NCBI GenBank assembly: GCA_965223545.1
Contig: OZ245006.1
Location: forward strand, 6,112,001 to 6,176,000
Length of the DNA: 64,000 nucleotides
From: Planctomycetota bacterium
GTDB lineage: Bacteria; Planctomycetota; UBA1135; UBA2386
Direction of reading: 5' to 3'
A model generated the notes under the pieces. That model was not told where the DNA came from. It saw only the letters and a program-made list of their open reading frames with translations, and searched no databases. Each line of letters opens with the position of its first letter. Positions within the stretch are counted from its first letter, which is position 1. A program made the translations under genes and the position numbers. Shown here piece by piece: positions 39,397 through 43,127 of this stretch.

Positions 39397-40644
39397 ATGA
39401 TCCGAGCTCCCTTGCTGGTCCCGTTGCTGGCGGCGGTCTGCGTCGCCCAGCCGACGCTGGGTGAACAGTGGTGCGCGGTGCGCGATGCCGTGCTGCCCGG
39501 CGACTCGGATGCCGGCTGGCGCGCGATCCGCTGGCACGAGACGATGACCGAGGGACTGCTCGAGGGGCAGCGCACGCAGCGCCCCGTGCTGCTGTGGGCG
39601 ATGAACGGTCACCCCCTCGGCTGCACTTGAAACAACGGCGTCGCTGCCAGACGGTCGGTCTGGTCCGATCCCGCAGTGCAGGCGTTGGTCGAGCGTTTCG
39701 TGCCCGCCGCCGACGAGGTCAGTCGGCTGCAGCGCGGTGACGACGCCGAGTGCCGGTTCTTTCAGTCCTTCGCCGAGGACGGTCACTACGGCGGGCGCAG
39801 CGTGCCGACGGGGACCCGGCAGGGCATCTACGCCGTCGCGCCCAGCGGGCGGCTGCTCGCCTCGATCAACACGCGGAGCCCGCTGCGCATGGTGGACATG
39901 CTCGAGCGCGCGCTGCGCGCTTGGCAGGCGATGCCCGCTGCCGAACGCGAGCTCGATGCCTACCGGGCCGCGCAGCTGCGCGCGGTGCGCCGGGCGCGCG
40001 ATCGGTTCCCCGAAGACGGTCTCGTGTTGGAGGTGCTGGCGCGCGACCTGCCCCGCGGGGAGGCCGCGAACGAGACCGAGTCCGCGCACTGGCACGCCGC
40101 CGCGTGGAATCGCGATTGGGCGTGGTTCACCGCCGAAGAAGTGCGCCGCTGGCTGGGCGAGGAGCTCGTGCCCGGCGAGGGGCGCGCACTGCCCGAGGAC
40201 CTGGCGCTGCGCTTGGCGCGGTTGCACTGTGTCGACCACGTGCGTGGCCAGGTCAAGCCGTGGCGGGTCGAGGAGGTGCGGCAGGCGGAGTTCGTCGCCC
40301 GCGTCGAACGCGTGCGAAAAGGGGTCGCGGAGCTGCGGCTCGAGGGGGCTGTGCGGGCCGAGGCCAGCGGCCACTGGCCCGTGCGCGGCCACCGCGATCG
40401 CGAGGCGCCGCTCGCGCAGAGCCGCGGGATCGATCTGCGCTTTGCCGGCGTGGCGAGCTACGACCAGCAGCAGCAGAGGTTCGTCGCACTGCAGCTGATC
40501 GGCGAGGGGACCAGGCACGGTGGCACGCAGTACAACAGCCGAGGCGGCGATCTCGAGACTGCGCCGATTGGGCTGGTGCTCCGGTGGACTCCCGAGCCGG
40601 CACGGGTCGCGCCGGCGTTCTTTTGGAAGTACGGATGGCGATGA
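39397..40644 (+). CDS. Probable exported selenoprotein (CxU motif; UGA at 39628-39630 read as Sec), 415 aa
   Basis: ORFs 39397-39630 and 39676-40644 are in the same frame, separated only by the TGA in LWAMNGHPLGCT*NNG; SECIS-like hairpin follows; N-terminal signal peptide. Confidence 0.75.
39640..39669 (+). promoter_or_regulatory. Candidate bacterial SECIS element
   Basis: Perfect upper stem CCAGAC/GTCTGG (39647-39663) with a G-initiated loop GGTCG, separated from the UGA by 16 nt; lower stem GTCG/CGAT. Confidence 0.65.
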
Positions 40645-43127
40645 TCGGATTTCGGTGGGTGGCGGCGGTGGTCGGGCTCGGCTTGGTGAGTGGATGTGGG
40701 AGTGCGCCCGGCGAAGCGCGTCCCGCTGCGCGCGGCGACGCGCTGCCCACCATCGCCGCCGTGGCAGACGCGTGGGAACGGCACGACGGCTTCGTCCCGT
40801 TCTACTGGGACGCGGCGGCGGGCCGTTTGTGGCTGGTGCTGCGCGACGGGCAAGAGCTGCTGTATGCCACCGGTTTGGCCAGCGGGCTGGGGTCCAATCC
40901 GGTCGGCCTGGACCGCGGCCAGGTCGGAGGCGAGCGCATCGTGGATGTGCGCCGGACTGGCGGTCGACTGCTGATGGTGGCGCGCAACCTCCGCTATCGA
41001 GCGCTCAGTGACAACGCCGCCGAGCGGCGAGCGGTGGCCGATTCGTTCGCTGCCTCGGTGCTGTGGGGGTTCGAGATCGCGGCCGAGGACGACGATGGCG
41101 CGGTGTTGGTCGATGCCACCCCGTTCTTGTTGTCCGATCGCCGGGGCATCGCGCGCACGCTGCAGCGCCGCGGGCAGGGCGGCTTTTCGCTCGACGGCAG
41201 CCGTTCGGCGGTCCATCGCGAGCGCTGTGCCGCGTTCCCGGACAACACCGAGCTCGAGGCGCTGCTGACGTTCACCAGCGGGGAGCCGGGTGGCGAGGTA
41301 CGCGCCACGGCGGCCGACGCAGGGGCCGTGAGTCTGCGCACGCGCCACAGCTTCATCCGACTGCCGGACGATGGTTATCAGCCCCGGGAAGCGGATCCAC
41401 GCGTTGGCTACAACACGACCGGGTTCGCCGACTACGCGGCGGCGATCGACGCGCCGATGCGGGTGCGTTGGATCCAGCGGCACCGCTTGCGCAAGCGTGA
41501 CCCCTCGGCGGCGCGCAGCCATCCGGTGCAGGGGATCGTCTACTACCTCGATCCAGGCGTACCGGAACCCGTGCGCTCGGCGCTGCGCGATGGCGCGGCG
41601 TGGTGGGCAGAGGCGTTCGAGGACGCGGGCTTCATCGACGCGTTTCGGGTCGAGGACCTGCCTGCCGGCGCCGATCCGCTCGACGTGCGCTACAACATGA
41701 TCCACTGGGTGCACCGCGCCACACGCGGCTGGTCCTATGGCGGGTCGATCAGTGATCCCCGCACGGGCGAGATCCTCAAGGGCAACGTGTTGCTCGGCTC
41801 GCTGCGGGTTCGCCAGGACTATTTGATCCTGCGTGCGCTCGGCACCGACGAAGAGGCGCGCCGGCACGCGTTGGCGCGGTTGCGGCAGCTCGCCGCCCAC
41901 GAACTCGGCCACACGCTCGGCCTCACCCATAACTTCGCGGCCAGCACCTACGGCGGCCGCGCCTCGGTGATGGACTACCCGGCACCGCTGGTGACCGTGA
42001 CCCCGGACGGCGCGCTCGATCTGTCGGCGGCCTACGGCGTCGGGGTCGGCGGCTACGACCGGTTCGCGATCCGCTACGGCTACACCGAGTTCGCTCCGGG
42101 GATCGACGCGGCGGCCGCGCTGCGTGCCATGGTGGACTCCGAGGCACCAGACCATCTCTTCCTGAGCGACGCCGACGCGCGCCCGGCCGGCGCGGCCCAT
42201 CCGCTGGCTTCGCTGTGGGACAACGGCGCCGATCCGGTGGCGGCGCTGGTCGATGCGGTGCGTGTGCGCGCCGCCGGTCTGCGACGGTTCGCTTCCCGCG
42301 AGCCCGACCGCGGCTCCGTGCTGGCAGAGCAGGAGGAGATGCTGGTGCCGCTCTACTTGCACCATCGCTATCAGTTGGCGGCGACCGTGAAGATGCTGGG
42401 CGGGCAGTACTACGAGTACTCGGTGGCAGCCGCCGCGGCCCCGCCGCCGACAGCGCGCCGCGCGGTGCCGGCGCCGAGGCAGCGCGCGGCGTTGGCCGCG
42501 GTGCTGCAGTGCATCGATGCCGAGCTGTTGACGCCGCCGCCGGCCGTCCTCGAGGCGATCCCGCCGCACCCGCCCGGCTACGGCGGCGAGCGGTTCGACC
42601 GCGCCACGGGGGCGCCCCTGGATCCGGTGGCGATGGCGGTCACCGCGGCGCGGCTCGTGCTCGACGGTCTGTTGCAGCGCCAGCGCGCGGCACGGCTGGC
42701 AGAGCAGGTCGCGCGGGATCCGGCCCAGCTGGGGTTCGGCGAAGTGCTGGGTGGACTGGTGGCGCGCACGCTGGGCGCACCGCGCCGCGAGGGGTTGGTC
42801 GGGCTGGTCCAGCGGGCGATCGACCGGAGCGTGCTGGAGCGCCTGATGGACCTCGCGGTCGACCCAGCCGCCGCACCGGTGGTGCGCGCCGCGGCGCACG
42901 AGTCGCTGGTCGACCACGCCGCGGCGCTGGGCTCGTTGCCGCCGGCCTTCGGGCCGGAGCAACGGGCGTTGCAGCGCGATCTCGAGAGCTTTTTGCGCCG
43001 ACCCGACCTGCGTCCCCCGCCCGCGGCCGCGCCCGAGACGCCGCCGGGCGATCCCATCGGGACATTGGATTTCGCGAATTCGGGTGGTGGCTGCGCGCAC
43101 GGTCGCGCTGCGTTGCAGATGAGGTAG
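40641..43127 (+). CDS. Zinc-dependent metalloprotease (EcxA-like, DUF5117/DUF4953), lipoprotein
   Basis: LVSGC lipobox, DPRVGY, DPRTGEILKG, HELGHTLGLTHNF, SVMDY. ATGA overlap with the upstream stop. Confidence 0.9.
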   Translation: MIGFRWVAAVVGLGLVSGCGSAPGEARPAARGDALPTIAAVADAWERHDGFVPFYWDAAAGRLWLVLRDGQELLYATGLASGLGSNPVGLDRGQVGGERIVDVRRTGGRLLMVARNLRYRALSDNAAERRAVADSFAASVLWGFEIAAEDDDGAVLVDATPFLLSDRRGIARTLQRRGQGGFSLDGSRSAVHRERCAAFPDNTELEALLTFTSGEPGGEVRATAADAGAVSLRTRHSFIRLPDDGYQPREADPRVGYNTTGFADYAAAIDAPMRVRWIQRHRLRKRDPSAARSHPVQGIVYYLDPGVPEPVRSALRDGAAWWAEAFEDAGFIDAFRVEDLPAGADPLDVRYNMIHWVHRATRGWSYGGSISDPRTGEILKGNVLLGSLRVRQDYLILRALGTDEEARRHALARLRQLAAHELGHTLGLTHNFAASTYGGRASVMDYPAPLVTVTPDGALDLSAAYGVGVGGYDRFAIRYGYTEFAPGIDAAAALRAMVDSEAPDHLFLSDADARPAGAAHPLASLWDNGADPVAALVDAVRVRAAGLRRFASREPDRGSVLAEQEEMLVPLYLHHRYQLAATVKMLGGQYYEYSVAAAAAPPPTARRAVPAPRQRAALAAVLQCIDAELLTPPPAVLEAIPPHPPGYGGERFDRATGAPLDPVAMAVTAARLVLDGLLQRQRAARLAEQVARDPAQLGFGEVLGGLVARTLGAPRREGLVGLVQRAIDRSVLERLMDLAVDPAAAPVVRAAAHESLVDHAAALGSLPPAFGPEQRALQRDLESFLRRPDLRPPPAAAPETPPGDPIGTLDFANSGGGCAHGRAALQMR

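Follow-up and report, generated by a model that had tools for sequence, protein, structure and literature searches.

Do two adjoining "hypothetical" genes in a planctomycetal genome encode a single, exported selenoprotein? The locus lies in a 64,000-nucleotide window (positions 6,112,001 to 6,176,000 of contig OZ245006.1, assembly GCA_965223545.1, Planctomycetota bacterium), whose own numbering is used below unless a contig is named. A first-pass annotation of the window had proposed that a 77-aa open reading frame continues through a UGA codon as far as 40644 and that this codon is recoded as selenocysteine (Sec). We found that the two genes are indeed one reading frame across an in-frame UGA: from an ATG at 39397, 77 codons lead to a TGA (39628-39630), which is followed by 337 open codons and a terminal TGA at 40642-40644. 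In our overall reading, to which we assign a probability of about 65%, the product is an exported two-domain selenoprotein of thioredoxin (Trx) fold that uses a single selenol as nucleophile on disulfides or oxidised cysteines of other molecules, and that is a permuted relative of selenoprotein N (SelN; SELENON in humans). The locus comprises the following features:

39397..40644, + strand: one gene encoding 415 aa, with read-through of UGA78 as likely Sec (frame, homologues, model)
39397..39450, + strand: likely signal peptide, about residues 1-18 (hydrophobic N-terminus judged by eye, also in most homologues; low model confidence over residues 1-20)
39463..39498, + strand: N-terminal helix, residues 23-34 (model)
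39499..39942, + strand: thioredoxin-fold domain, residues 35-182, Thioredoxin_7/AGR-like, with an insertion of about five residues before the active site
39628..39630, + strand: in-frame TGA that likely encodes Sec78, where helix 79-86 begins (aligned homologues, model)
39640..39670, + strand: bacterial hairpin resembling a selenocysteine insertion sequence (SECIS), upper stem 39646-39664, G-led loop 22 nucleotides (nt) after the UGA (folding, rule test, codon bias; covariation weak)
40006..40641, + strand: beta-rich C-terminal domain, residues 204-415, without a match in Pfam or NCBIfam; a probable homologue of the luminal domain at the N-terminus of SelN-type proteins (model, profile comparison)

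Likely recoding of the in-frame UGA

The read-through protein matched 95 of 301 genomes of the phylum, the source genome (G000) included, and 50 loci were examined, namely the 30 best and 20 regions picked to cover rows without a stop and weaker matches. A TGA stood at residue 78 in 48 of the 54 alignments that spanned the site, the window's own included (47 directly, and one that lay a codon off and was shifted by hand), with homology extending to both sides of it. Of the six remaining alignments, one showed Cys (L038, TGT), two Ser and one Val, and the last two were an ordinary CxxC protein (L043) and a remnant truncated at its 5' end (L042). L043, like a locus near 4955900 on contig C1 of G000, was rejected as a family member and represents an ordinary Trx7-like protein. 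Among 23 full-length database homologues compared by eye, nine carried Cys at the aligned position, one Trp (P0003) and 13 other residues. By the terms of the first-pass annotation, a TAA, TAG or Trp at this position would have spoken against recoding; neither stop occurred in any of the 54 alignments, while the single Trp homologue falls on the other side. Contigs from two public sequencing runs of one study were identical to the stretch, but they are possibly its source and hence not independent.

The machinery for Sec insertion was likewise present, since selA, selB, selD and tRNA-Sec (selC) of the source genome all scored over their cut-offs, and its selD contains a TGA of its own. We tested 80 of the 94 other family-bearing genomes for selA and detected it in 78, compared with 54 of 80 genomes without a family match, related genomes not being independent counts. 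The two family-bearing genomes in which selA was not found were G142, whose copy has Ser in place of the TGA, and G148, whose family gene (L042) lacks the Sec-bearing 5' half.

A CCAGAC/GTCTGG stem starts about 16-17 nt after the UGA and presents its G-led loop at +22, so that the hairpin was found where the first-pass annotation had placed it. We applied the rules for bacterial SECIS elements given in the Fig. 2 legend of PMC13188914 (loop of 3-9 nt, G in its first two positions, spacing of 16-37 nt, minimum free energy of at most -7.5) with our own script rather than bSECISearch. The window's hairpin conforms to them (its loop lies at +22, and the 31-nt piece has -14.1 kcal/mol and z -2.4), as do 47 of the 48 TGA sites; the test is lax, given that 154 of 288 control codons passed as well. 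A sharper distinction came from loop position, with loops at +21-23 in 31/48 TGA sites and 23/288 control codons. Furthermore, codon choice within the stem was strongly biased across the TGA genes (CGG for 22 of 23 Arg, background 0.25; GTC for 29 of 30 Val, background 0.50). Other results on the hairpin were weaker: taken alone it is modest, with z of only -0.7 to -1.35 in three longer windows, and in a fixed-structure covariation analysis of the 48 genes four of five measures did not exceed shuffled alignments (79-467 of 500 shuffles reached the value). Percent paired was the sole measure above the shuffles (9/500), and the register of the hairpin differs between subclades.

The UGA could alternatively be a real stop, or be read as Trp, with two coupled genes as the outcome. 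An in-frame GTG at 39676 fits this alternative, as do the Trp of P0003 and hundreds of database proteins that begin just past the UGA site. The first-pass annotation had seen no obvious start for the downstream half, but a gene caller uses this GTG for a 322-aa protein (P0002); gene callers can thus annotate the 3' half alone. A stop at the UGA, however, would cut the Trx domain at its active site, uninterrupted homologues exist and TAA or TAG never takes its place, while the gene's own terminator is also a TGA, at which homologues use TAG, TAA or TGA. We therefore regard a stop or Trp as very improbable, and the conserved UGA, the Cys at the aligned site and the Sec machinery make Sec the very likely identity of residue 78.

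Predicted fold and comparison with known families

The structure model of the read-through product reached a predicted local distance difference test (pLDDT) score of 93.9 and matched thioredoxin folds, in agreement with the first-pass annotation; folding from the single sequence alone gave a pLDDT of 37.8. The codons upstream of the TGA spell ...GHPLGCT, and a catalytic C-x-U spacing had been suggested on this basis. In the model, however, Sec78 aligned with the first Cys of the CxxC motif and Gly81 with the second, so that the motif is U-x-x-G-x-x-x-R rather than C-x-U. Cys76 was present in only 41 of the 48 TGA genes and gave way to Ser or Thr in several Cys homologues, while the Arg seven residues after Sec occurred in all 48. 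Judged by eye, the helix of residues 23-34 may be the counterpart of one found ahead of the Trx domain in SelN-type proteins. The protein is likely exported, judging from its putative signal peptide. The C-terminal beta domain was modelled only within the whole protein, where it appeared tightly packed (predicted template modelling score 0.91), and gave weak LmcA rows (E 0.055-0.086). The proposed fusion to a domain of no named family stands. A sequence search for relatives in the PDB yielded none, apart from three chance matches.

No family in Pfam or NCBIfam (June 2026) matched the 415-aa protein, and no entry in Table 1 of PMC13188914, a 2026 inventory of 119 selenoprotein families, fitted by motif and domain; a term search of its available text gave no SelN entry. 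The assumption that no named selenoprotein family was at hand is borne out by these sources. In the literature as far as its text was accessible, we found no paper on the 415-aa family or on a bacterial SelN, although the groundwater candidates of Deng et al. 2026 or the BSepDB data could include the family. Thioredoxin_7-type domains (DsbD-gamma-like 3f9u, AGR2/AGR3/ERp18, DsbH) differ from the family, which has Sec without a CxxC motif, an insertion before the active site and the fused beta domain. VPGUxxT type 2 (NF041383) is likewise a Trx7-like selenoprotein, for which membership was set at a model score over 275 bits plus the VPGU motif. It was ruled out: its model had no match at the locus, a VPGU motif is lacking, and just 3 of 51 family members matched, none at an E below 0.018. 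Elsewhere the source genome does hold a true VPGUxxT type 2 gene, which contains two TGAs (C1 4587752-4588597, - strand), and a further weak match with a TGA (C1 4196526-4196915, + strand). Deiodinase-like selenoproteins carry a C-T-U tripeptide on a Trx fold, as does the 415-aa protein; PF00837 matched none of the 51 members, and this assignment was rejected. The TsoC family NEPxGxxU (NF045708), which has the PxGxxU spacing in common with the protein, was ruled out by the lack of any match in the source genome at E up to 1. In the accessible text of PMC5330540, the Brachyspira Trx-like Sec.1 (CxU) is a small protein of the PF13192 type whose Sec lies in a 5' extension; the present protein has 415 residues, Sec at the Trx active site and no PF13192 match, and was thus set apart.

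The family comprised 3,968 clusters at 50% identity (E up to 0.001). It is large, though split by gene callers and absent from Pfam, NCBIfam and the table cited above, and it appears to be a real, widespread and uncatalogued selenoprotein family that is predicted to work like a Trx-fold selenoenzyme. One locus (L046) holds two adjoining family members whose active site reads U-C. The module also occurs fused to Ser/Thr kinases (P0122, P0193, P0196, P0215) and to a PQQ-type propeller or a SecDF P1-head-like domain (P0136; P0175).

Probable relationship to selenoprotein N

SELENON is a poorly understood human protein that is mutated in a congenital muscle disease and had no solved-structure match in the searches made. 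As a lead only, the top feature match of a Cys homologue (P0005) in the ESM Atlas was a eukaryotic "Selenoprotein N" cluster (0.91). The search for bacterial SelN-type genes began with a short motif pattern, which gave four matches. Two were bacterial TGA genes (L064, L065) whose genomes each had a selA match (one over the cut-off, one a fragment); the others (L062, L063) were rejected as chance matches. The L065 protein matched a sea-star EF-hand protein (E 4e-25, 83% of length); we infer that the latter is SelN, given that it has a membrane segment, an EF-hand name and an S-C-x-G motif. SelN-type genes with matches in both domains were found in 10 of 401 genomes of the phylum, and in all of them the beta domain lies ahead of a terminal Trx domain. 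Such same-order TGA genes are L064-L075, L110 and L126; P0278 had no NCBIfam match. A SelN orthologue of Poribacteria is reportedly described in a thesis, and same-order bacterial SelN may thus not be new.

Comparison of the Trx domains by hhalign gave P 96.3 (E 1.6e-9), with U aligned on U and the Gly and Arg in register. SELENON and the bacterial SelN types share with the 415-aa family a Trx-like domain with Sec at the first-Cys site after a short insertion, Gly at U+3 and Arg at U+7. An extracytoplasmic location would also be shared (luminal for SELENON, according to the accessible text of PMC12839072; by putative signal peptide for the 415-aa protein), and there is a partner beta domain on both sides, with weak but colinear similarity. 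For this beta domain, a first mixed SelN-type N-domain template gave a score of 29 (P 24-27), or 36 (P 63) with a longer cut, and bacterial SelN-type templates gave scores of 37-38 (P 67-74), the best at P 73.5, E 2.9e-5 and score 37.9 over 125 columns. Against the bacterial N-domain, a longer cut scored 37.0, compared with at most 24.8 for 66 shuffles and 19.7 for 21 unrelated real profiles, and the global alignment was colinear from the first to the last strand. A SelN N-domain hidden Markov model (HMM) placed 19 family members in the top 25 of 29,578 sequences.

Several observations weigh against kinship with SELENON. Between 4 and 10% of shuffled proteins also attained the Atlas value of 0.91, and no SelN cluster was among the three Atlas matches listed for the beta domain by itself. 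One ordinary CxxC Trx7 sequence also aligned with the Trx domain (P 78), which is comparable to the result for individual SelN-type sequences (P 71 and 0.9). In a quick Trx-domain tree, eukaryote-like rows (support 100) nested inside the SelN-type clade (98), while the 415-aa family formed a separate clade (99), so that the two are not shown as sisters. Moreover, the beta domain reached just 24-27% with the first mixed template and had no match to a eukaryote-only N-domain template (0.3%); no single match of the N-domain HMM fell below E 0.6, and searching in the reverse direction gave no enrichment.

The protein could thus be a true exported Trx-fold selenoprotein whose beta domain is unrelated to that of SELENON, the link being a broad Trx7-like superfamily with an insertion before Sec. 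The weak beta-domain scores, the missing eukaryote-only match and reverse enrichment, and the tree, which leaves kinship undecided, would agree with this, as would three paralogues in the source genome (P0267-P0269) that share the Sec-Trx domain, have other C-termini and outscore the 415-aa gene on the SelN Trx HMM. Against it, the beta match exceeded all shuffles and real-profile controls, is colinear across the whole domain and turned up in the very family that also matches by its Trx domain, which is unlikely by chance. We consider an unrelated beta domain doubtful and favour common descent: the C-terminal beta domain and the luminal domain at the N-terminus of SelN-type proteins are probably homologues, and this bacterial family is probably related to SELENON by circular permutation. 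It falls outside the SELENON family in the strict sense. Its order is Trx then beta, whereas SelN types have beta then Trx; the motif is C-T-U-N-N-G instead of S-C-U-G-S-G (SCUG being the SELENON motif in the accessible text of PMC12839072); a cleavable-looking signal peptide replaces the type II membrane anchor; and the EF-hand of SELENON is lacking (no Pfam match).

We lean slightly towards the broader view that SELENON belongs to a large uncatalogued bacterial superfamily with three architectures, namely same-order SelN types with the eukaryotic proteins nested among them, the widespread permuted family and stand-alone Sec-Trx paralogues. If so, SELENON would have its origin in a redox module exported by bacteria, and its unsolved structure and its chemistry could be approached through the soluble, EF-hand-free 415-aa version as a tractable model; a bacterial origin would thus bring soluble bacterial models for a human disease selenoprotein. 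The link would also indicate which active-site residues matter, such as the Arg at U+7.

Proposed mechanism and neighbouring observations

The 415-aa protein is best read as a predicted exported selenol oxidoreductase or redox sensor. SelB would read the hairpin 16-34 nt downstream of the UGA and insert Sec, and the protein would be exported after synthesis. Sec78, flanked by the conserved His72, Thr77 and Arg85, would then attack a disulfide or sulfenic acid of a substrate; the mixed bond might be resolved by Cys76 where present, or else by an outside thiol, with the beta domain selecting the partner. By analogy only, this would fit the reduction of luminal cysteines of SERCA by SELENON, as reported in the accessible text of PMC9344019.

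A point against catalysis throughout the family is that in 14 of the 23 full-length homologues the site is taken by a residue without redox activity (Ser, Ala, Asp, Gly, Asn, Arg and, once, Trp); the module therefore exists in a non-catalytic form as well. The Sec form might therefore serve mainly as a redox or ligand sensor or as a metal-binding module instead of a turnover enzyme, an alternative that overlaps our preferred explanation. It would be in line with the lack of a resolving Cys at +3, with the many homologues devoid of any redox residue, with four homologues that are C-terminal domains of the Ser/Thr kinases named above, at least one behind an apparent membrane segment, and with the description of SELENON as a sensor-reductase (PMC9344019, accessible text). 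Yet most genomic copies retain the costly Sec together with its hairpin, and this Sec occupies the canonical site of the nucleophile; we judge a mainly sensory or metal-binding role unlikely.

The three Sec-Trx paralogues of the source genome, likely exported, are encoded at C1 6247186 (-), 2580553 (-) and 2993927 (+) (L058, L059, L060; P0267-P0269). Each has an in-frame TGA with a hairpin at a similar position and no NCBIfam match, and P0268 has C-U like SelN. Dozens more weak Trx matches containing a TGA (L077-L095) were scattered across the phylum, which suggests further uncatalogued families.

Comparison of the 1.5 kb on either side of 30 loci gave 10 pairwise matches, none with the window's own flanks, and no conserved neighbourhood; hence no function could be derived from an operon. 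The gene that follows in the window, encoding a zinc-metalloprotease-like protein (40641-43127, +), is not common to other family loci; it overlaps the stop of the 415-aa gene (ATGA), which suggests translational coupling.
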